Sequence record: SRR31156797_4117
Length of the DNA stretch: 37,920 bases
Strand: one strand, 5' to 3'
Of the stretch, positions 2,538 to 32,614 are shown one piece after another (position 1 is the stretch's first letter; each line of letters begins with the position of its first letter). Under the pieces are notes generated by a model. The model ran no database searches, was not told the DNA's origin, and saw only the letters and a list, made by a program, of their open reading frames with translations. The translations under genes and the position numbers were made by a program.

Positions 2538-3203
2538 ATGTCAGCATCAACAGAGAATTTTTTAAAAACCATTTATTGTTTTCGGAAGTTAGAAGCAAGA
2601 GATACCAAACCGGGTTCTATTGCCAAGGCTTTGGGCATTAGCAATGCGGCAGCTACTGATATGGCAAAAAAATTATCTGTTCGTAAGTTGGTTTTGTATG
2701 AGAAGTATCAACCCTTGAACTTGACCGATGAGGGAGAGAAGATTGCCTTGCAAATTATCAGAAAACACAGGCTTTGGGAAACTTTTCTGCACAGAACTTT
2801 CGGTATGTCTTTGTTGGAAATTCATCGTGAAGCTGAATTGCTGGAGCATCAAACATCGGATTTTATGGCGGATAAACTGTGGGAGTATTTGGGTAAACCC
2901 GATTGTGATCCACATGGAGATCCGATTCCGGATGTAGAAGGAAAGGTTCATTTGCACAAGGACAACCAGGTTCTTTACAAGGCAGATGTAAATGTGCTGT
3001 ATGAAATAAAAAGATTGATTAACAGGGATGAGGAGTTCTTTCAATTTTGTAAGGGAAATGGAATTGAGATAGGGACAAAGCTTCAGATTGTTAAGCAATA
3101 TTCTAAAAATAAATTAACCGAAATACTGATCCGGGAACAGAGAATCTTGATTCCTCAGGAGTTTTCAGGTCTTGTATATGTGAGACGGATCGGTGAACAG
3201 TGA
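2538..3203 (+). CDS. DtxR/MntR family metal-dependent transcriptional regulator with C-terminal FeoA-like domain
   Basis: STENFLKTIY, HTH region, RKHRLWETFL, EAELLEH, DPHGDPIP motifs; start chosen at MSASTEN because the upstream ATG 2517 lies inside the operator. Confidence 0.9.
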   Translation: MSASTENFLKTIYCFRKLEARDTKPGSIAKALGISNAAATDMAKKLSVRKLVLYEKYQPLNLTDEGEKIALQIIRKHRLWETFLHRTFGMSLLEIHREAELLEHQTSDFMADKLWEYLGKPDCDPHGDPIPDVEGKVHLHKDNQVLYKADVNVLYEIKRLINRDEEFFQFCKGNGIEIGTKLQIVKQYSKNKLTEILIREQRILIPQEFSGLVYVRRIGEQ

Positions 3204-5748: not shown

Positions 5749-7722
5749 ATGATTAAATTCCAACCACTTTTATTTCTTTTCATTCTATTGGGTTTCGCTC
5801 CAGATGCATTTAGTCAGTCGGGAGGGAAAACTGTAAGTGAGTTATTTTCTGACATAGAGGTTTCTAAAAAAGTAAAGTTTTTAGGTGACGAATGTTGGAA
5901 ATTAAGAGAGCTTGATTCTGATTCTGCTTTGGTTTTAGGAGAGGAAGCTCTTCGTTTGGCAATTGCTCATGATATAAATAAAGAGTTGCCAAGACTTTAT
6001 GGTTTTATGGGTGTAATTCAATTGCACTATATGTATCGCCCGAAAGAATCCTTGCATTATCTTCATTCTTCATTAGAACAAAGTGTTAAGCAAAAGGATA
6101 GCATTCAGTTGGCATTTGCTTACAACAACCTGGGTGACCTGTATCTGTTTACGGGAAATATTCCATTATCATTAAAATTCTCGGAGCAATCTCTGGAACT
6201 TTTTACCGAAATAAACTACTCTGTTGGGAAGTCCTATTCGAATGTGAATATGGGATTGGTTCATCGAGAGAAAAAGAATTATAATCTGGCATTGGATTAT
6301 TTTAATAAGGCTATAGTTATTTGGGAGGAAATCGGTGAAGAGATAGGTATTGGCGCTGTTTATTTGGAGATGGCGAAAACCTATGAAGACATGGAAGATC
6401 TGGATATGGCAATGCTCTATTATCAAAAATCGTTACAACGTACAAGTGGTGAGCATTTGGTGCGATATGCAGCCTTTTGTTTGCATGGAATGGCAAACAT
6501 ATATTACAAGAGAAACAATTTGAAAAAAGCTCTGGAATACTATCAAAATGGAATACAAAGAAACCTGGAGCGAAATCATGAATTTGGATTGATTGATGAT
6601 TATATTGGATTGGCTTTTGTTTACGCCAAACAAAACAGGCGAGAAGAGGGAGAAATGTATCTTGAGAAAGCTATGGGTATTTCAAGAACTTTGGGCTTGA
6701 ATTCAAAAATATTGAAAGTAAACAAATCCTTTGCGAATTTTTATCAAATTCTGAATGATTTTAGGAAGTCAACAGAGTGTTACAATCGGTTTTTACATCA
6801 GTATGATTCTATTTATTCTATTCAACAGTTTGAGATCATTACGGAAATGCAAAACGGTTTTTCTGTGCAAAAATCCTTATTGGATACCGAGGAGGAATTG
6901 CATTTGCAAAAGACACAGGAAATTTACTTGTTGGTCATTATTTTATTAGTGCTGATTATTGCAGGCGTTATTTATGGAAGATTTATTTCTCATCGAAATT
7001 TGAATCGAAAATTATCGGAAATCAATCAATCGAAGGACAAACTTTTTTCGGTGATTTCGCATGATCTTAAAAATCCATTCAATTCATTAATAGGTTTTAG
7101 TGAGCTATTGCTTTCTGAAATTGAGAATAGAAACTATGAGAAAAGTAAGCGGTTTGCTACCTACTTGAATCAGGCTTCTGTTGAAGGGTTAAAATTACTT
7201 ACCAATCTATTGCATTGGTCTTTATCGCAAACCGGGCGAATTCAATACAATCCTGAATTGGTTAATTTTAATGATTTATTTTCTGAGCTAAAAGAGTTCT
7301 ACGAATTAGAATCTAAGGATTATAATGTGAATTTAAGTTTCGAAAACCTATTGCAAGATAAGGTTAGTGTGGATTTTAATATTCTTAGGATTATAATAAT
7401 TAACCTGGTTTCTAATGCATTGAAATATACTATGGAGGGAGGTGTTATTCTTGTAACAGCCTCGAGTAATGATAATAAGGTAAAAATAAAAGTAAGAGAT
7501 ACGGGGATTGGAATGTCGAAAGAGCGATTGAATAGTATATTCGATAAGGGTACTTTTGTAGAAAGTAAAAAGGGATTGCGAGATGAACACGGTACAGGTT
7601 TGGGCTTAAATATTGTTGACGAATTAGTACAAATTCATAAAGGTGAAATTAAAGTGAAAAGTGAGGAAGGAAAGGGAACCACTTTTGAGTTAGAGTTCCC
7701 TTTAAATCTTTCCAATATGTAA
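5749..7722 (+). CDS. TPR-containing sensor histidine kinase
   Basis: Signal peptide, TPR repeats (AYNNLGDLY, SNVNMGLVH), TM segment, H-box ISHDLKNPF, N-box NLVSNALKY, G-boxes DTGIG and GTGLGL. Confidence 0.92.
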   Translation: MIKFQPLLFLFILLGFAPDAFSQSGGKTVSELFSDIEVSKKVKFLGDECWKLRELDSDSALVLGEEALRLAIAHDINKELPRLYGFMGVIQLHYMYRPKESLHYLHSSLEQSVKQKDSIQLAFAYNNLGDLYLFTGNIPLSLKFSEQSLELFTEINYSVGKSYSNVNMGLVHREKKNYNLALDYFNKAIVIWEEIGEEIGIGAVYLEMAKTYEDMEDLDMAMLYYQKSLQRTSGEHLVRYAAFCLHGMANIYYKRNNLKKALEYYQNGIQRNLERNHEFGLIDDYIGLAFVYAKQNRREEGEMYLEKAMGISRTLGLNSKILKVNKSFANFYQILNDFRKSTECYNRFLHQYDSIYSIQQFEIITEMQNGFSVQKSLLDTEEELHLQKTQEIYLLVIILLVLIIAGVIYGRFISHRNLNRKLSEINQSKDKLFSVISHDLKNPFNSLIGFSELLLSEIENRNYEKSKRFATYLNQASVEGLKLLTNLLHWSLSQTGRIQYNPELVNFNDLFSELKEFYELESKDYNVNLSFENLLQDKVSVDFNILRIIIINLVSNALKYTMEGGVILVTASSNDNKVKIKVRDTGIGMSKERLNSIFDKGTFVESKKGLRDEHGTGLGLNIVDELVQIHKGEIKVKSEEGKGTTFELEFPLNLSNM

Positions 7723-7725
7723 TTG

Positions 7726-9345
7726 TTATTGCATGATTGTTGAATAAAATTCGGGAGATTTTCTGTGTTTTGTTGCTTGTTCGTATGCGTAGGCAAATTG
7801 AATTAATTTTTGCTCCGAGAAAGCTTCTGCAAAGAATGAAATGCCAACCGGTAAACTGTGTACAAATCCTGCAGGAACTGTAATGTTTGGATAGCCAGAC
7901 ACTGCTGCAGCTTCGCTACTTCCTCCACCATAATGATCTCCATTGATTAAATCGATACTCCAGGCAGGACCATTTGTAGGTGCGATTAATGCATCAAGAT
8001 TGTGCTTTTGGAGTGTAGCATCAATTCCTTTTTTACCAGCCAATTCTTTACACTTTTTTAATGCATCAAGATATTCAGGTTCATTCAAATCTCCCTTTTT
8101 GTTTGCCATTTCCATAATCTCTTGTCCAAACCATGGCATTTCAAGATCAGCATATTGTTTGTTAAAGGCAATCACATCTTCTAAGGTTTTCACAATAGGG
8201 TATTTACAAGAAGCTAAATATTTGTTCAAATCGTTTTTAAACTCATACAATAGTACTTCAAATTCTTCACTGCTGTATTGATGAAGGTTTTCAAGTTCTA
8301 CATCAATGAGTTCGGCTCCCGCAGATTTCAAATCTTCTATTGCTTTTTCCATGATTTTATCCACTTCAGTATGGAATCCGAACAGTTGACGTACAATGCC
8401 AATTCTGGCTCCATGCAAAGCTTTGGAATTTAGATTTTTGGCATAATTAATTGCTGAATTGTTGTTGTTAAGGGTGATTTTATCACTGTTATCCTTAGCT
8501 GTCATTACACTTAGTAATATTGCAGCATCTTCAACCGATTTTGCCATTGGACCGGCTGTATCCTGTGAGTGAGCAATTGGAACAATTCCAGATCTGCTAA
8601 CCAATCCGAGAGTTGGCTTTATTCCTACAATGCCGTTGTGTCCCGAAGGGCAAACAACTGATCCGTCTGTTTCGGTTCCTAAAGCTGCCACACAAAGATT
8701 GGCTGCTACGGCAACTCCTGATCCTGAACTTGATCCACAAGGAGATCTGTCAATCACATAAGGGTTGTGGGTTTGACCACCTCTTCCGCTCCATCCACTC
8801 GATGAGCGCGTACTTCTAAAGTTTGCCCATTCACTTAAATTGGTTTTGGCTAAAATGAGAGCACCAGCCTCTCGTAATTGTTTCACAACAAAAGCATCAA
8901 ATTCAGCAAAATTTCCTTCCAATGCATAGGATCCTGCCGTAGTCATCATTTTATCGCCGGTATTAATATTGTCTTTAAGCATAATAGGAATACCATGTAA
9001 TGGTCCTCTGATTATGCCAGCTTTTCGTTCTTCATCAAGTTGTCGGGCAAGCGGTAAAGCATCCGTGTTGATATCTATTACAGCATTTATTTTTGGTCCA
9101 TTTTTATCGATGTTTTCAATTCTATCCAAATAGGCAATTACCAATTCTTCCGAACTTAGCTGCCCTGAATTCATCAAATCTAACAATTCAGCTATACTTT
9201 TTTCATTGTAAGGGAAATTGTTAAAATCTTCCTGGTTAGGAATTTTTTCTTCCGGATTACTGGAACTTTGACATGCTTGTAAGCCTAAGCCTGAAACAAA
9301 AGCAGCACTAATTGCGGAAAGAGAAATGAATTGACGTCTCTTCAT
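7726..9345 (-). CDS. Amidase-signature family enzyme, predicted Tat-exported lipoprotein
   Basis: LHGIPIMLKDNI, GSSSGSG, GTETDGS catalytic motifs; N-terminus MKRRQF...LQAC. Confidence 0.92.
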   Translation of the reverse strand: MKRRQFISLSAISAAFVSGLGLQACQSSSNPEEKIPNQEDFNNFPYNEKSIAELLDLMNSGQLSSEELVIAYLDRIENIDKNGPKINAVIDINTDALPLARQLDEERKAGIIRGPLHGIPIMLKDNINTGDKMMTTAGSYALEGNFAEFDAFVVKQLREAGALILAKTNLSEWANFRSTRSSSGWSGRGGQTHNPYVIDRSPCGSSSGSGVAVAANLCVAALGTETDGSVVCPSGHNGIVGIKPTLGLVSRSGIVPIAHSQDTAGPMAKSVEDAAILLSVMTAKDNSDKITLNNNNSAINYAKNLNSKALHGARIGIVRQLFGFHTEVDKIMEKAIEDLKSAGAELIDVELENLHQYSSEEFEVLLYEFKNDLNKYLASCKYPIVKTLEDVIAFNKQYADLEMPWFGQEIMEMANKKGDLNEPEYLDALKKCKELAGKKGIDATLQKHNLDALIAPTNGPAWSIDLINGDHYGGGSSEAAAVSGYPNITVPAGFVHSLPVGISFFAEAFSEQKLIQFAYAYEQATKHRKSPEFYSTIMQ

Positions 9346-11465: not shown

Positions 11466-11498
11466 CTTGCAAATCTCTAATTAAAAATCCTACATTTG
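11466..11498 (+). promoter_or_regulatory. Bacteroidota sigma70 promoter of the cob operon
   Basis: TACATTTG at 11491-11498 (TAnnTTTG) with TTG about 21 nt upstream, immediately before the riboswitch. Confidence 0.65.
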
Positions 11499-11507
11499 TT
11501 CTGTGAT

Positions 11508-11677
11508 TTGGCAATATCAGTTCGTTTGATCTGATATTAAAGAGGGAATCCGGTTAGAGTCCGGAACTGTACCCGCAGCTGTAATCTCCATACCAAACTC
11601 TACTGCATTATGCCACTGTATTTCATGGGAAATATGGGAAGGCGCAGCCAGAGGGAGAAAGTCAGAAGACCTGCCTG
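11508..11677 (+). ncRNA. Cobalamin (B12) riboswitch
   Basis: Hallmarks AAGAGGGAATCCGGT, GTCCGGAACTGTACCCGCAGCTGTAA, GCCACTG...GGGAAGGC and B12 box AAGTCAGAAGACCTGCC, upstream of cobalamin synthesis genes; ends approximate. Confidence 0.95.
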
Positions 11678-11723
11678 ATAACGAATATGTTTAATCGATA
11701 CTTTCGGGAATAAAGGTGAGATT

Positions 11724-11948
11724 ATGAGAAAAATTATTACTTCCATGCCTGCGGGGCGTGTTGATTTGAGTTCGCTAAAGCAGAACTTTATTCATACTAA
11801 AAAGAGAACCGGTGAAAAACTTTTCACATGGTTAAAGTCGATGCTAAGTCGAATATCCCCAATTCAATTTATTGAGAATGCTGAGGAATCTCTTCATGAG
11901 GAGAAAATGATTCCTGTTGTGGTATTTCACGATCGGTTCAATAGATAA
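11724..11948 (+). CDS. Possible small ORF between the riboswitch and cobA
   Basis: 74-aa ATG ORF starting about 47 nt after the B12 box; no recognised motif. Confidence 0.35.
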   Translation: MRKIITSMPAGRVDLSSLKQNFIHTKKRTGEKLFTWLKSMLSRISPIQFIENAEESLHEEKMIPVVVFHDRFNR

Positions 11949-27436: not shown

Positions 27437-28575
27437 TATCCTTTGGTATCTATCTCTTTCGTATCAATAAGGTTGATTCTTTTCTTCATTTTTTTCTGAA
27501 TCACTTTAAAGTGATGCTCATCATCTTGGGTAACAAAAGCAATGGCCTCTCCTGGTGATTCCGCTCGTCCGGTTCTACCAATTCGGTGGATGTAATCTTT
27601 AGGAGAACGAGGTAGATCATAATTTACAACGTAGGGTAAAAATTCAATATCAATACCACGAGTTAGCAAATCGGTAGCAACCAATACGCGAAGTTTTCCG
27701 GTTTTAAATTTTCGAAGATTTTCAGTTCGTGCTCCCTGGCTTTTCTTGCTATGAGTACTGGTAGCCTGAATCCCATTTTTACTCAACTTATAAGCAACAG
27801 CGTCTGCTCTGTGTGCCGATGAAGTAAAAACCAATACTTGCTTTAAATTGTTGTGTTTGATTAAATATCGCAAAAGCGGCCCCTTTTTCTCTTCGGCAAT
27901 AGAATACGCCAATTGATCGATTAAATCAATGGTATCTACTTCTGCTTCTATTTTTATAACTACAGGTTTTTTTAAAAGAACCTGATTCACATCCTCTACA
28001 TTTTTGCTAAGAGTAGCGGAGAATAACATGTTCTGGCGTTTCTTAGGCAAAAGTGCAAATATGCGATTCATTTCATCTTGAAATCCCATATTTAGCATCT
28101 TATCGGCCTCGTCTAAAACCAGTGCCTTTATTTCTGTTAGGTGTACTGCATTTGAATCTACCAATTCTAATAAACGACCAGGTGTGGCAACCAAAATGTC
28201 AACATTCTGCATTGCTTTCATTTGTGGGTTGATGGAAACACCACCATGAACGGCTAGGCATTTTATAGGATCGGCGAGGGCAGAGGAGAATTGTTGAAAT
28301 ACCTCAAGAACCTGTGCAGCTAACTCTCTTGTTGGTACTAATACCAATGTCTTGATATGTCGGTTTTTTGAAATGCTACCTCCCTGAAGGTTCGTTAGGA
28401 TAGGTAAAACGTAACTTGCCGTTTTTCCAGATCCTGTTTTGGCTATACCCAACACATCTTTTTTGTTGAGAATAGCAGGAATTGCTTCTTTTTGAATAGG
28501 ATAAGCTTCGGTATATTTTTGTTTGGCAAGTGCTTTTTGTAATGAAGAAGCCAAGCCTAAAGAGGTAAAAGACAT
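27433..28575 (-). CDS. DEAD-box RNA helicase (RhlE-like)
   Basis: Q motif, [29 protein letters not shown]. Confidence 0.95.
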
Positions 28576-28743
28576 GATATTTTTATTCTGATTGTTATGA
28601 TGAGCTATTTTAAGGGCACTAAGTTACGGCAAATAAAGCTCAACTAATCATGAATCAAGAAAAACACTCTATCAGATAGGTTAAAAATATCCTATTTTTT
28701 AATCAAGGAATTGTTCTCTGTCTTAAAGGTAATGTTTGTAGAT

Positions 28744-28773
28744 AAAAAAAGAGGTTGCATAGTTGGCAACCCC
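28744..28773 (-). terminator. Rho-independent terminator closing the precursor array
   Basis: Minus strand GGGGTTGC-CAACTAT-GCAACCTC-TTTTTTT, 25 nt after the last precursor stop. Confidence 0.85.
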
Positions 28774-28798
28774 GAGAGAATAAGTGTTATTAAAAATC

Positions 28799-28954
28799 TT
28801 AATCATAGATTCTCATGCAAACACCGCCATCGCAATAATACCCGCCTGGGCAATCCTCGTGCCAGTCGCAAAAAGGATGGGCACCACCTTTAATATTTTG
28901 TTGTTCTGTTTTACTCAATTCTTTTGCACCAACTAGTTTTTCTAAATTTTTCAT
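28799..28954 (-). CDS. Double-glycine precursor peptide P9 (51 aa): MKNLEKLVGAKELSKTEQQNIKGG|AHPFCDWHEDCPGGYYCDGGVCMRIYD
   Basis: 24-aa GG leader shared with 8 neighbours; start reassigned from 28984. Confidence 0.9.
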   Translation of the reverse strand: MKNLEKLVGAKELSKTEQQNIKGGAHPFCDWHEDCPGGYYCDGGVCMRIYD

Positions 28955-29009
28955 AGTGTTACAATTTAATTTGAATCTTGGCAAGGTTTTAACTTTTTAG
29001 TTTTAAATG

Positions 29010-29216
29010 TTATGGTTCTAGTTCACCATTACCTCCGCCTCCACCAGAACCGCCAGAGTTCGGATCATCAGGTACACAGAATATACCTTCGCAATGTTGT
29101 CCTTCGGGACATTCAGGATCGGATCCGCAGAATGACCCTGAAAAGCCACCTTTAACATTTAATTGTTCTTTTTTGCTAAGTTGTTTAGCACTAGTAAGGT
29201 TTTCTAAATTTTTCAT
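29010..29216 (-). CDS. Double-glycine precursor peptide P8 (68 aa): core FSGSFCGSDPECPEGQHCEGIFCVPDDPNSGGSGGGGGNGELEP
   Basis: Conserved leader, 4 Cys, Gly-rich tail. Confidence 0.9.
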   Translation of the reverse strand: MKNLENLTSAKQLSKKEQLNVKGGFSGSFCGSDPECPEGQHCEGIFCVPDDPNSGGSGGGGGNGELEP

Positions 29217-29270
29217 TGGTTTAATTTTATATCCTGAGAATCAGGATGGATTTGAAAAAGTACAATCAAT

Positions 29271-29441
29271 TTAAACTGGAATCGGAAGGCAAATACCGAG
29301 GTCTATTACGCAGCCTTGCCCCTCAGGACAGCTTTGATCATCAATGCATTTTGGATCGTTTGGCCATTGACCACCTTTAATAACTTGTTGTTCTTTCTTA
29401 CTTAGTTTTTTTGCTTCAGTTAATTTTTCTAAATTTTTCAT
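29271..29441 (-). CDS. Double-glycine precursor peptide P7 (56 aa): core QWPNDPKCIDDQSCPEGQGCVIDLGICLPIPV
   Basis: Conserved leader; start reassigned from 29477. Confidence 0.9.
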   Translation of the reverse strand: MKNLEKLTEAKKLSKKEQQVIKGGQWPNDPKCIDDQSCPEGQGCVIDLGICLPIPV

Positions 29442-29466
29442 TTGGTAAAAAAATAATATGTTTTTC

Positions 29467-29498
29467 ATCTTGAACATCTACACCGTCAAGATTTCGGT
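29467..29498 (-). repeat. Intergenic RNA motif copy A (putative H-type pseudoknot), upstream of P7
   Basis: Minus strand ACCG-AA-ATCTTGA-CGGT-GTAGATGT-TCAAGAT. Confidence 0.65.
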
Positions 29499-29534
29499 TT
29501 TAATTTAAATGCAATATTATATCAGTATTCTTAA

Positions 29535-29711
29535 TTACATTCTGCTACACCAGTCTCTGCAATTGGGAGGAGCAACTCTTATGCAACGCTCATAAGTCAT
29601 ATATTGTAACCCCATATCGGCACAAGACATTGGTACTTCTCCACCTGCAACATTTACCTGTTCTTTTTTACTGAGGATTTTGATTCCAGTTAAATTTTCT
29701 AAATTTTTCAT
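29535..29711 (-). CDS. Double-glycine precursor peptide P6 (58 aa, not in ORF track): MKNLENLTGIKILSKKEQVNVAGG|EVPMSCADMGLQYMTYERCIRVAPPNCRDWCSRM
   Basis: Translated by hand; conserved leader, 4 Cys. Confidence 0.9.
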   Translation of the reverse strand: MKNLENLTGIKILSKKEQVNVAGGEVPMSCADMGLQYMTYERCIRVAPPNCRDWCSRM

Positions 29712-29733
29712 TTGGTAAAAATTATATGTTTTT

Positions 29734-29766
29734 AATCTTGAATATTTATACCGTCAAGATTTCGGT
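29734..29766 (-). repeat. Intergenic RNA motif copy B, upstream of P6
   Basis: Minus strand ACCG-AA-ATCTTGA-CGGT-ATAAATAT-TCAAGATT. Confidence 0.65.
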
Positions 29767-29785
29767 TATTGAAGTTTATAATATG

Positions 29786-29816
29786 ACAACAGTCTCAATC
29801 CATATGAGACTGTTGT
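29786..29816. repeat. 12-bp stem-loop just downstream of P5
   Basis: acaacagtctca-atccata-tgagactgttgt. Confidence 0.75.
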
Positions 29817-29824
29817 TTTATGTT

Positions 29825-30010
29825 TTAATCCATAGGAGTAAATGGATCGAAGCCGTTTGGGCATTTTTTACCAGCCTCCCATGGTGTAATAATTCCATCT
29901 ATTAGGCAAAATACCCCTACAGGTTTGAGTTCTCCAATACCACCTGTAATTTCTTTTTGTTCTTGTTTATTAAGAGTCTTTGCTTCAGTTAGGTTTTCTA
30001 AATTTTTCAT
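29825..30010 (-). CDS. Double-glycine precursor peptide P5 (61 aa): core IGELKPVGVFCLIDGIITPWEAGKKCPNGFDPFTPMD
   Basis: Conserved leader, 2 Cys. Confidence 0.88.
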   Translation of the reverse strand: MKNLENLTEAKTLNKQEQKEITGGIGELKPVGVFCLIDGIITPWEAGKKCPNGFDPFTPMD

Positions 30011-30037
30011 AGTATTAAAATTGAATTTTGAGTTATA

Positions 30038-30066
30038 CTTGAATATTATACCGTCAAGATTTCGGT
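30038..30066 (-). repeat. Intergenic RNA motif copy C, upstream of P5
   Basis: Minus strand ACCG-AA-ATCTTGA-CGGT-ATAATAT-TCAAG. Confidence 0.62.
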
Positions 30067-30071
30067 TTTAA

Positions 30072-30105
30072 TTCCTACCAATGAAATATATATCATTGGT
30101 AGGAA
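30072..30105. repeat. 13-bp stem-loop just downstream of P4
   Basis: ttcctaccaatga-aatatata-tcattggtaggaa. Confidence 0.75.
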
Positions 30106-30120
30106 AAGTTAGTTTTTTAG

Positions 30121-30267
30121 TTAGCCCTGGAAGTAACAATTAAATCCACTACAAGAAGCATCAGGATGACATTCAACGTAACATGGAGGAGTTGCGCCAC
30201 CTTTTATAGTTTGTTGCTGTTTTTTGTCAAGAGTTTTTACTCCGGTTAATTTTTCTAGGTTTTTCAT
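30121..30267 (-). CDS. Double-glycine precursor peptide P4 (48 aa, not in ORF track): MKNLEKLTGVKTLDKKQQQTIKGG|ATPPCYVECHPDASCSGFNCYFQG
   Basis: Translated by hand; conserved leader, 4 Cys. Confidence 0.9.
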   Translation of the reverse strand: MKNLEKLTGVKTLDKKQQQTIKGGATPPCYVECHPDASCSGFNCYFQG

Positions 30268-30318
30268 GGGAAATGATTTATATTTTATGAATATTTATGA
30301 AAAAATGTATTGTTTATC

Positions 30319-30474
30319 TTACTCAAGAAGGTATCTTTCACATGCACCGTTAATACAGGTCCACCCTGTTGGACATGTACCATCTGCATTACATTGTCTT
30401 TTCCCACCTTTAACATTTTGTTGTTCTTTTTTACCAAGAGTTTTGGCTCCCTTTAAGTTTTCTAAATTTTTCAT
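30319..30474 (-). CDS. Double-glycine precursor peptide P3 (51 aa, not in ORF track): MKNLENLKGAKTLGKKEQQNVKGG|KRQCNADGTCPTGWTCINGACERYLLE
   Basis: Translated by hand; conserved leader, 4 Cys. Confidence 0.9.
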   Translation of the reverse strand: MKNLENLKGAKTLGKKEQQNVKGGKRQCNADGTCPTGWTCINGACERYLLE

Positions 30475-30502
30475 TTGTATGAATTTAAAATGTAGTTTTT
30501 TA

Positions 30503-30535
30503 TCCTGAACTATTTAAAACTGTCAGGAAATCAGT
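30503..30535 (-). repeat. Intergenic RNA motif copy D (compensatory variant), upstream of P3
   Basis: Minus strand ACTG-ATT-TCCTGA-CAGT-TTTAAATAGT-TCAGGA. Confidence 0.62.
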
Positions 30536-30554
30536 ATTATTTAATTGGGTGTAT

Positions 30555-30707
30555 TTACTCTATACTGTATTGACAAACACCATTTATACATTGCATTAAA
30601 CCAGGGCAAGAGTAATCAGGTCTACAATCTATTTGACCACCTTTTATCGCTTGCTGTTCTTGCTTACTAAGAGTTTTAGCTTTAGTGAATTCTTTTAAAT
30701 TGTTCAT
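30555..30707 (-). CDS. Double-glycine precursor peptide P2 (50 aa, not in ORF track): MNNLKEFTKAKTLSKQEQQAIKGG|QIDCRPDYSCPGLMQCINGVCQYSIE
   Basis: Translated by hand; conserved leader, 4 Cys. Confidence 0.9.
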   Translation of the reverse strand: MNNLKEFTKAKTLSKQEQQAIKGGQIDCRPDYSCPGLMQCINGVCQYSIE

Positions 30708-30724
30708 AGGGTTTTATTGTTAAT

Positions 30725-30970
30725 TTATAAATTAGGATCAATGTGTATTGGTCCTTCTGGACTTCCACCGTTATTTCCACCACCTCCACTGCCAGAGTTA
30801 GGGTTGTCAGGAACACAAGTTCCATTTTCACAGTGCTGTCCGGTTGGACAATAGCCAACTCCATCTTCCATTTGACATGCTGATGGGATGTATGGCAAAC
30901 CACCTTTTACATTTTGTTGTTCTTTTTTCGTTAAAGTTTTAGTTCCTGTTAGATTTTTTAAATTTTTCAT
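30725..30970 (-). CDS. Double-glycine precursor peptide P1 (81 aa): core LPYIPSACQMEDGVGYCPTGQHCENGTCVPDNPNSGSGGGGNNGGSPEGPIHIDPNL
   Basis: Conserved leader, 4 Cys, Gly-rich tail. Confidence 0.9.
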   Translation of the reverse strand: MKNLKNLTGTKTLTKKEQQNVKGGLPYIPSACQMEDGVGYCPTGQHCENGTCVPDNPNSGSGGGGNNGGSPEGPIHIDPNL

Positions 30971-31015
30971 TTTCTAAATGTTAAATTTGATTCCCGAAAT
31001 ATTCAGGAATAGAGA

Positions 31016-32614
31016 TTATTGAATTAATGCAGTATTCTGCATCTGAATTTGTTCTTCAGTTAAATTTTCGATAAAATATTGCAAGTCTTCAAAATCATAT
31101 TCTTTTGGATATGATCTTCCATTAATCAATACTTCGGGAGTAAATAGAATTTGATTTTGCGTGCACCATTCTTTTTCTTTCTCGAGTACATCATAGATGT
31201 TTATGTTATTGCACTTACCGTATGTCTCTATCCATTTTAAAGGTGAGAGAATTTCATATGCGTCATTCATTGCTTGCATGCAGGCAGTTTGACCTTTTGT
31301 TTTAAATATTTCGATAAGTTTTGCTGCTATTTGGGTATCCGAATTTTCTTTCTTGTTCGATAAGTTAAATCGAACAGTAATTTTAATATCAGATGATTTT
31401 TCTAGTGCTTGATGTATTATTTTGTGTGAATTTTTACAAAAGCTACATAATGGATTTGTGATGATAACAATCTCAAGGTTGGCATTAGAATTTCCAAAGG
31501 TAATTTCATTAATAGTTGAAATTTGAGTATCTAACTTCGTTGATCTATAATGTAATGCGTTAAAAATTTCAAAATTCCTTTTGAATTTGTTGTGTTGAAT
31601 TTTTAGATCAAATATCTGCTTGTTTTCTTGTAGCTTTGGTGAAATAAAGAACCAAAAACTTGTTGAAACAAATAAAGTAAATAGTAGTATTGGTATTGTA
31701 TTTATTGATATTTGAAGAAATTCTGCTGAACTTATATTGAGGAAAGAAATTGTAGCTTGAAGAATAAGAATACCAACAGTAGACAGGCAAAGTAAGCACC
31801 ATTTTTTAACAATTAATGCTTGGTAAATAATGGAATAGATTGTAAACGGTAAGGCTAGAATACTTATTTGATGAAGCAATTTAAAATCAATTGATTTAAA
31901 AGTTATGGCAAATGAAAGAGCTGTAATGAATAAGAAATAAATCATACCTAAATCACTTAATCTTAGAATGCCAAGGATTTTTCCACCTTTGGAATTCATT
32001 ACATCAGTACAGCTCAGTTTTTTATTATTACCCGAGCATATTTTGTTCAGAAGGGAAGAGTTTTCTCCTAGTTCGTGTTGGAATATTAAAGCACAAACAT
32101 AAATTGCTATAGCACTGAGAAGAAAGTGTATGCTCTCATATAATTTCTGATTTAAGATGATAAATGTTGCTACAATGAGTAAGGGACTTAATGTGACAAA
32201 TAATTTCTTGAAATTATAAGGTTGGGATTGTTTGTCATATTCGTCAATATCAATACCCAAAACAACACCCGTCCAAACGATTATAAATTCAGAATAGGTA
32301 AGGAATTTATATTTCCTGCCGTTTTCACTCATTTTCAAACCATCTTTGTGTTTGCATATTAACACAAAGTTATCTCCTGTCTGATCATTGATATGAGCGA
32401 TAAAGTGGTCGGGTAAAAAATTTATATTTTCTTCCGATTTTGGAATCTCTAAGGCCAAATTTGGAATATTGAAATGGTCTAGAACTCCAGTTAATGAATT
32501 TAAGCTTGGATAGGTAGGGTGACCGAATAGTTGAAGGCGAAGTTCGTCATTATCAACTTTAATTTTATTCTTAACTAATAATCCTTCAAGAATTAGGAAT
32601 AAATTTTCATTCAT
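31016..32614 (-). CDS. Vitamin K epoxide reductase (VKOR) family protein with N-terminal degenerate peptidase-C39-like domain and C-terminal thioredoxin/DsbA-like domain
   Basis: HPTYPSLNSL..LPDHFIAHI..NFVLI..WTGVVL (C39-like); loop Cys pair CSGNNKKLSC plus VMNS and WCLLC (VKOR); NPLCSFC and FTPEVLING (thioredoxin fold). Confidence 0.85.
   Translation of the reverse strand: MNENLFLILEGLLVKNKIKVDNDELRLQLFGHPTYPSLNSLTGVLDHFNIPNLALEIPKSEENINFLPDHFIAHINDQTGDNFVLICKHKDGLKMSENGRKYKFLTYSEFIIVWTGVVLGIDIDEYDKQSQPYNFKKLFVTLSPLLIVATFIILNQKLYESIHFLLSAIAIYVCALIFQHELGENSSLLNKICSGNNKKLSCTDVMNSKGGKILGILRLSDLGMIYFLFITALSFAITFKSIDFKLLHQISILALPFTIYSIIYQALIVKKWCLLCLSTVGILILQATISFLNISSAEFLQISINTIPILLFTLFVSTSFWFFISPKLQENKQIFDLKIQHNKFKRNFEIFNALHYRSTKLDTQISTINEITFGNSNANLEIVIITNPLCSFCKNSHKIIHQALEKSSDIKITVRFNLSNKKENSDTQIAAKLIEIFKTKGQTACMQAMNDAYEILSPLKWIETYGKCNNINIYDVLEKEKEWCTQNQILFTPEVLINGRSYPKEYDFEDLQYFIENLTEEQIQMQNTALIQ

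Follow-up and report, generated by a model that had tools for sequence, protein, structure and literature searches.

A covarying leader element, probably an H-type pseudoknot, upstream of bacteriocin-like precursor genes in Bacteroidota

What is the short sequence that recurs before several genes of one array of small precursor genes, and what might it do there? The array lies in a 37,920-nucleotide (nt) stretch of DNA from record SRR31156797_4117, which is called the window below. Nine short genes on its minus strand encode proteins that start with MKNLENL...KGG, a leader of the Gly-Gly (GG) type, and continue into Cys-rich cores. An earlier note on this DNA had described four copies of an element in front of these genes and read each as an RNA pseudoknot of the H type, with covariation in both stems. 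All four copies were found on the minus, gene-sense strand at the positions claimed, and they end 22–28 nt before the ATGs of precursors 7, 6, 5, and 3. The array and the copies are as follows (R1 is a covariance model introduced below; E, expectation value).

28799..30970, minus strand: nine bacteriocin-like precursor genes in an array, each encoding a GG leader (MKNLENL..KGG) and a Cys-rich core
29467..29498, minus strand: copy A; stem 1 ACCG/CGGU, loop 1 AA, stem 2 AUCUUGA/UCAAGAU, loop 3 of 8 nt; 25 nt to the ATG of precursor 7 (29441); R1 match 29462-29525, E 1.8e-7
29734..29766, minus strand: copy B; stems as in copy A, stem 2 extendable to 8 pairs; 22 nt to the ATG of precursor 6 (29711); R1 match 29730-29781, E 1.2e-5
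30038..30066, minus strand: copy C; stem 1 ACCG/CGGU, stem 2 of only 5 pairs (UCAAG); 27 nt to the ATG of precursor 5 (30010); R1 match 30031-30093, E 3.3e-5
30503..30535, minus strand: copy D; stem 1 ACUG/CAGU, stem 2 UCCUGA/UCAGGA, loop 3 of 10 nt; 28 nt to the ATG of precursor 3 (30474); R1 match 30497-30561, E 2.9e-6

The four strands of copy A succeed one another as ACCG (29498-29495), AUCUUGA (29492-29486), CGGU (29485-29482), and UCAAGAU (29473-29467). Copy D differs from copies A–C in both stems, each time in a compensatory manner as had been claimed, and its orthologue in the closest relative (locus L001) carries one further exchange in stem 2, from U-A to G-C. A 17-mer core of the element, allowing up to three mismatches, occurred three times in the window against 0.10 expected, and none of 100 shuffles reached three.

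Seventy-nine related loci were collected by way of a VKOR-type protein and its relatives from genomes of Bacteroidales, Flavobacteriaceae, and Saprospiraceae, and 217 precursor genes were located in them by their GG-leader pattern; together with the window, the search space was 1,003,469 bases. A pseudoknot finder set to a score of 10 or more was too permissive, passing 151 of the 217 real upstream regions and 68 of 217 shuffled ones. Seeds were chosen at a score of at least 11 and a distance of 18–32 nt from the ATG, and seven were dropped by eye as misregistered or unrelated. Two models were used: R1, a covariance model from 81 seeds that encodes a 5' hairpin and stem 2 but not stem 1, and R2, a sequence-only model in which no structure is encoded. 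R1 gave 157 matches at E ≤ 0.01, of which 150 were aligned in 148 distinct rows, and R2 gave 169 matches, of which 150 were aligned. Every match of either model lay in the gene sense.

The core of the element, about 35 nt long with the consensus AGACAcAAACCUUGAGUGUCUUUAAAUGUUCAAGG, consists of stem 1, loop 1 of AA(A), stem 2 ending in UGA/UCA, no loop 2, and loop 3 of about 8 nt. Most of the 217 precursor genes have this arrangement ahead of them. The H-type order (5' strand of stem 1, AA(A), 5' strand of stem 2, 3' strand of stem 1, about 8 nt, 3' strand of stem 2) was found in the window and in the aligned relatives (150 of 157 with R1 and 150 of 169 with R2), and the two stems are interleaved without a loop 2 in both, as the earlier note had described for the window copies. 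Stem 2 has 6–7 pairs; stem 1 has 6 pairs in most relatives, and the Marinifilum lineage to which the window belongs keeps the inner 4 only. In Flavobacteriaceae the consensus is a hairpin, AUUCU-CUCGCGA-AGAAU, followed by AGACAC-AAA-CCUUGA-GUGUCU-UUAAAUGU-UCAAGG and about 27 nt to the AUG. Such a fold is sterically ordinary: the strands do not overlap, and loops of 2–3 nt over 6–7 pairs and of 7–10 nt over 4–6 pairs are commonplace dimensions. At least 90% of the 81 seeds agree at certain unpaired positions of loop 1 and loop 3 and at the UGA/UCA junction; in loop 3 (UUAAAUGU) these are two A positions and a G. The suggestion that loop 3 varies freely was thus borne out among the four window copies but not across the family, where this consensus exists.

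On the R1 alignment, stem 1 was 94.6% paired and showed double-sided changes at 6 of its 6 pairs. One pair occurred as CG (62), GC (38), UG (25), and UA (5), and another as AU (103), CG (19), UG (11), and UA (7). On the R2 alignment, stem 1 was 94.7% paired and the two parts of stem 2 were 89.9% and 98.8% paired, with double-sided changes at 5 of 6 pairs of stem 1 and 6 of 6 of stem 2. The observed values were reached by 0 of 500 shuffles on both alignments, a control that gives no probability, and pairing fell to 36–48% when the partners were slid by 1–3 columns. The covariation claimed for both stems therefore held on alignments from models that do not encode stem 1 (R1) or any structure (R2); stem 1, for which an absence of covariation in a larger alignment had been considered, was about 95% paired there through many pair types. 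G.U pairs were frequent and A.C mismatches rare (46 versus 7 in stem 1; 47 versus 13 in stem 2), which indicates that the gene-sense strand pairs as RNA, rather than that a DNA palindrome or the antisense strand is conserved. Unless the strands pair, it is difficult to account for so many pair types among distant families. From this comparative record, we concluded that the element is very probably a selected RNA pseudoknot of the H type, formed on the mRNA strand.

Some points weigh against this conclusion. The seeds were picked with a structure-aware finder, and many alignment rows are paralogues, so that the counts per pair type overstate the number of independent events. Comparative data cannot tell whether stem 1 and stem 2 form simultaneously. 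Moreover, nested folding of single copies was unremarkable, with z values from -0.4 to -2.2 for the four window copies and from -0.4 to -3.2 for single copies. As single-sequence folding is not significant alone, the support for the pseudoknot is comparative.

Conservation begins about 22 nt before stem 1 and none was seen further upstream. This part holds the accessory 5' hairpin, which is weaker than the core: it was 74–76% paired, and no hairpin was present in 47 of 139 distinct upstream stretches, about one third of the copies. The hairpin lies about 10–20 nt before stem 1 (for example at 7687-7700 of locus L035), and its centre is UCGCGA in most copies. The other centres, UUGCAA, UGCGCA, and UGGCCA, are likewise always self-complementary, which is unusual for an RNA hairpin loop. 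This palindromic centre might serve loop-loop pairing between copies or might be a DNA-level site.

To which genes does the element belong? A precursor gene defined by the pattern began 17–32 nt after the end of the match in 118 of the 150 aligned matches, and the distance from stem 2 to the AUG was 23–31 nt in 112 of these 118, with a mode of 27. Among the remaining 32, 21 were followed, no more than 24 nt away, by the start of an open reading frame (ORF) with 25 codons or more; the majority of these ORFs encode a leader that the pattern had missed (MLKNIL...GG and similar), and one (L004) is a leaderless remnant. The 11 without such an ORF comprised 4 matches that end within about 85 nt of the end of the locus and 7 that precede decayed precursors or genes starting with GTG. 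Elements persist before decayed precursors with premature stops or a lost leader, as at L056 11444-11560, L041 8097-8230, L050 7643-7760, and L004 8028-8180. In five whole genomes, 25 matches were found; all six that were checked precede GG-leader ORFs, and four of these six lie away from the main arrays. Among 151 Bacteroidota genomes sampled evenly, at least 5 had a match at E ≤ 0.001, a lower bound as 34 candidates were scored per genome, and all six new matches from this sample precede ORFs with a leader of the GG type. The placement before precursor start codons, noted from the window, is therefore general: every inspected match precedes a GG-leader gene or a decayed one. The element is specific to GG-leader bacteriocin-like precursor genes of Bacteroidota. 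Its carriers include the cultivable marine genera Tenacibaculum, Labilibaculum, Lacinutrix, and Aquimarina.

We also asked whether the element belongs to a known family. No Rfam 15 family matched it at the gathering cut-offs, either in the window or in ten related loci; such a match had been named by the earlier note as the test of novelty. When the threshold was relaxed to E ≤ 10 over 28500-31200 of the window and 7600-8300 of the flavobacterial locus L035, which holds a pair of copies, only chance-level rows fell on the elements (HtrA thermometer, 20.4 versus 52 bits; SpF10, 18.3 versus 60 bits). The closest known family is DUF805b (RF02914, in clan CL00115 with DUF805), an orphan cis-regulatory candidate of Bacteroidota whose name came up in the literature searched solely as a benchmark. 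Like the element, DUF805b is a leader of about 35 nt that can fold as an H-type pseudoknot, and it ended 18–24 nt before a start codon in 7 of the 10 stretches examined. It scored above its cut-off in five of five related genomes that carry the element, where true copies elsewhere reached 38–50 bits against a gathering score of 35.6 bits. In contrast, neither DUF805b nor DUF805 gave a row even at E ≤ 10 over the two stretches named above. DUF805b has two conserved boxes, GCCGAAAA within its hairpin loop and AGAGUAGG within its 3' tail. Both are absent from the element, and the ACCGAAA of the window is stem 1 plus loop 1, a different position from that of the DUF805b box. The 35 positions of DUF805b comprise a 4-pair hairpin and, in our reading, a second stem of 3–4 pairs that a loop 2 of 5 nt sets apart from stem 1, whereas the element has no loop 2 and a stem 2 of 6–7 pairs. 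DUF805b precedes many unrelated genes, whereas the element preceded only GG-leader precursors among the matches examined. Since it fails the model, lacks the boxes, differs in the proportions of stems and loops, and keeps to one gene class, the element is not a member of DUF805b.

In a Marinifilum relative (L115; G001 contig 3, 166664-166696), a true DUF805b lies 18 nt before a gene whose product starts with MKKVKLTLKKEVISDLE, another leader-peptide-like type. One genome may thus use two different leader pseudoknots, each for its own class of precursors.

Pseudoknots that act as translational operators (T4 gene 32, rpsO/S15, and the alpha operon/S4) are also of the H type, lie in mRNA leaders near the start, and act on loading of the 30S subunit. 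They lie on or directly beside the ribosome-binding site and bind the protein that the mRNA encodes, whereas the element ends about 27 nt upstream of the start, precedes genes for secreted peptides, and has no known protein partner. In gene context, the arrays resemble bacteroidetocin-type loci (PMC6671954), with GG-leader peptide genes beside a thiol oxidoreductase and, in flavobacterial loci, a C39-ABC exporter. Those passages of PMC6671954 that contain promoter, upstream, stem-loop, hairpin, or untranslated terms mention no RNA leader element. No description of the element was found in the literature searched on pseudoknots, RNA motifs, bacteriocins, and transcription starts in Bacteroidota or Flavobacteria. 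The main text of the 224-motif paper contains none of the terms bacteriocin, Bacteroidetes, and DUF805, its motif list being in supplements outside that search. Hence, the element represents a family of pseudoknot leaders before bacteriocin-like precursors that is absent from Rfam 15 and the searched literature and is related to a known, unexplained kind.

What the element does has to be read from its surroundings. The spacer between the knot and the AUG is 87% A+U and unstructured, with a median folding energy of 0 over 134 distinct spacers, in which neither a downstream hairpin nor complementarity to the knot was supported. Adenine occupied position -3 in 117, -12 in 112, and -11 in 100 of these spacers, and was also found at -13. 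According to the parts of PMC6847099 that deal with initiation, adenines at these positions raise initiation in Flavobacterium johnsoniae. In 61 of 147 sequences, no more than 30 nt separate stem 1 from the end of the upstream open frame. One locus (L076) has two elements: the first follows the VKOR gene and heads a tight series of eight precursor genes with a canonical terminator at its end, and the second begins at the stop codon of the C39-ABC exporter gene. As several loci have the element directly at the stop codon of the preceding gene, it may lie inside polycistronic RNA, and its position often looks like a junction within an apparent longer transcript. Contigs from metatranscriptome libraries join copy A to the flanking precursor genes (X2 record 5, 29429-29698; X5 record 12, 29354-29492, which holds copy A from 29492 on). 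Stretches that the contigs leave uncovered, around 29996-30718 with copies C and D, carry no weight either way.

Further structures were recognized in the window upstream of precursor genes.

30072..30105, minus strand: hairpin with 17-pair arms (94% complementary), 5 nt upstream of copy C, without a U-tract on the sense strand
29781..29821, minus strand: hairpin (88% complementary) between precursor 5 and copy B, 14 nt from the latter, without a U-tract on the sense strand
30990..31010, minus strand: hairpin-only relative of the element before precursor 1, AUUCCUGA / UCGGGAAU with one U.G pair and a 5-nt loop, no stem 1; 19 nt before the ATG at 30970
29231..29247, minus strand: hairpin-only relative AUCCUGA-UUC-UCAGGAU, 14 nt from the ATG of precursor 8 (29216) and retained by the L001 orthologue

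The hairpin at 30072..30105 stands where the family has its accessory 5' hairpin (P0) and was flagged as terminator-like on the plus strand only. The hairpins before precursors 1 and 8 resemble stem 2 and gave no R1 match at E ≤ 10.

We propose that the four repeats are a cis-acting motif of the mRNA leader with a post-transcriptional role in expression, a statement that, taken as a whole, we regard as quite possible but short of probable. The knot would act after transcription, in long transcripts that also carry maturation and export genes, and would support high and autonomous expression of the short precursor cistrons. One way would be to form a compact boundary, which might prevent upstream RNA from pairing with the start region. 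Such a boundary could shield the downstream RNA from decay that depends on the 5' end, or it could offer the Shine-Dalgarno (SD)-blind 30S subunit, on its protein S1 side, a landing place just outside the footprint. This mode of action is put forward tentatively from the arrangement of the sequences. Among the three functions suggested by the earlier note, a translation enhancer and a nuclease block or processing signal are weakly favoured over a ligand- or protein-binding element because the element keeps a fixed distance from a start region that is unstructured, rich in A/U, and equipped with known Bacteroidota determinants. The tight spacing itself would favour a link with initiation, and the single element before eight genes, together with the hairpins upstream of copies B and C, would favour a role at the transcript level, in stability or processing.

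Several observations count against this proposal. If the element were strictly a per-cistron enhancer of translation, a single one before eight genes, as in L076, would not be expected. A site for a ligand or protein would agree equally well with the conserved nucleotides of the loops. The knot is not needed by every cistron, since three window precursors have only a stem-2-like hairpin (1 and 8) or an apparent remnant (9) and two (2 and 4) have nothing upstream. The library contigs attest presence only and not strand, ends, or level, and carry-over of DNA into them is possible.

A stronger version, in which the knot is a dedicated, SD-independent module for ribosome loading or expression gating, akin to an internal ribosome entry site, or more boldly a new class of small self-cleaving or ligand-sensing pseudoknots, seems rather doubtful. 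If it were true, Bacteroidota would translate short toxin-precursor cistrons autonomously and at a high level from within long operon transcripts. Taken with DUF805b, it would mean that the SD-blind Bacteroidota use leader pseudoknots 20–27 nt upstream of the AUG as a general initiation device. Passages of PMC6847099 and PMC7797042 report that Bacteroidota ribosomes ignore SD sequences, and the element bears on the question of how particular mRNAs of the phylum gain translational favour. Being compact, covarying, specific to one gene class, placed at a fixed distance from the start, and present in cultivable carriers, it is a direct handle for reporter and probing work. It can further serve as a practical marker of bacteriocin-like precursors that lack annotation, as these genes often escape gene callers, and it could join the catalogues of RNA families.

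The rival that survives best is a regulatory sensor, in which the knot would bind a small ligand as a riboswitch, or a trans-acting protein or RNA, and switch precursor expression. The conserved unpaired positions of the two loops and the UGA/UCA junction, shared by at least 90% of the 81 seeds, are what such a site would lead one to expect, and in these positions, in size, and in topology the element resembles small pseudoknot aptamers. The tight association with one class of genes would also suit a dedicated regulator. Nevertheless, no expression platform was recognized: no intrinsic terminator was found on the sense strand at any element of the window or after the copies, and the spacer is unstructured and not complementary to the knot. 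No conserved regulator gene was found beside the arrays, where tblastn with six neighbours from the window matched Marinifilaceae loci only, and several copies per array are unusual for riboswitches. We therefore consider a sensor unlikely.

A processing signal, by which the element would direct endonucleolytic cutting of the polycistron into separate precursor mRNAs, either by a cellular RNase or by self-cleavage, appears less likely still. It would agree with the position of the element at gene junctions inside apparent operons and with the conservation of unpaired nucleotides, and the window hairpins without U-tracts could protect the 3' end of the upstream RNA. One adapter-flanked cDNA insert starts at 29492 inside copy A; as a single fragment, it carries no weight. 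On the other side, the Rfam search gave no ribozyme or other family match.

A DNA-level element is highly improbable; in this reading, each precursor gene would have its own promoter or operator, and proteins would bind the inverted repeats. The fixed distance to the ATG would suit it, TAnnTTT words are enriched between the knot and the ATG (50 of 147 sequences at +40 to +49), and by eye the stretch from stem 1 to stem 2 is loosely like a sigma-54 -24/-12 layout. However, sites bound by proteins conserve their sequence, and in the element the two arms change jointly through many pair types; G.U is tolerated and A.C is not, which the symmetry of a DNA duplex would not predict; and none of the 147 sequences has TAnnTTTG between -40 and +120, counted from stem 1. 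The reading in which stem 2 alone is functional and stem 1 fortuitous can draw on the mere 4 pairs of stem 1 in the window, on the hairpin-only relatives before precursors 1 and 8, and on nested folding, which picks stem 2 in copies A, B, and D, but it is just as improbable, as stem 1 has 6 pairs in most relatives and is about 95% paired, with GC/CG/UA/UG exchange, on alignments that do not encode it, against 36–48% in slid registers.

Some other candidates were examined and set aside. For a sigma-A promoter of Bacteroidota, which pairs a -7 box TAnnTTTG with a -33 TTTG some 19–21 nt further upstream, the -7 box occurred only 7 times in 147 sequences of 320 nt (-200 to +120), and for a sigma-54 promoter, the GG and GC dinucleotides were not conserved on inspection. 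An upstream ORF was considered since an AUG often falls in loop 3, but the U of this AUG varies, and copies B, C, and D of the window have no AUG. A fifth match in the window, at 3091-3166 on the plus strand (15.6 bits, E 0.81), was treated as chance; this stretch reads AACCGAAAUACUGA ... UCAGGAG with a 25-nt insertion and lies 78 nt before a 775-amino-acid ORF.

The remaining features around the array are the following.

31016..32614, minus strand: gene 5' of the array; its 532-amino-acid product has VKOR and thioredoxin domains, and its N-terminus resembles C39 below the threshold
28751..28773, minus strand: hairpin and U-tract after the last precursor gene

The precursor proteins matched PF14406 (Bacteroid_pep), TIGR04149, and leader_Chryseo weakly, all below the cut-offs, and the 532-amino-acid VKOR/thioredoxin protein has 79% identity to a Marinifilum protein. 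Terminator-like sites on the minus strand were found at 28773-28751, after the last gene, and at 28888-28876, inside precursor gene 9, neither of them at an element; the hairpin and U-tract at 28751..28773 are likely the end of the transcription unit.

The array and the VKOR gene (28799-32614) were compared with positions 6001-10350 of L001 and found to be much more diverged than the flanking genes. The VKOR protein is 79% identical between the two, whereas the DEAD-box helicase, the methyltransferase, the SAM hydroxide adenosyltransferase, and the histidine kinase are 94–99% identical, and the number of precursor genes is 9 in the window and 11 in L001. The VKOR gene and the precursor array thus form a hypervariable island within a conserved neighbourhood. 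A contig from an RNA library of a related strain (X3 record 8) joins 29199 to 29425, omitting 225 nt with precursor gene 7, which reflects either natural variation in the copy number of the array or an assembly join across the repeated leader sequences. Elsewhere in the window, a cobalamin riboswitch (RF00174) was identified at 11492-11692 on the plus strand (97.9 bits, E 1.9e-23), where it precedes a run of plus-strand ORFs starting at 11917.

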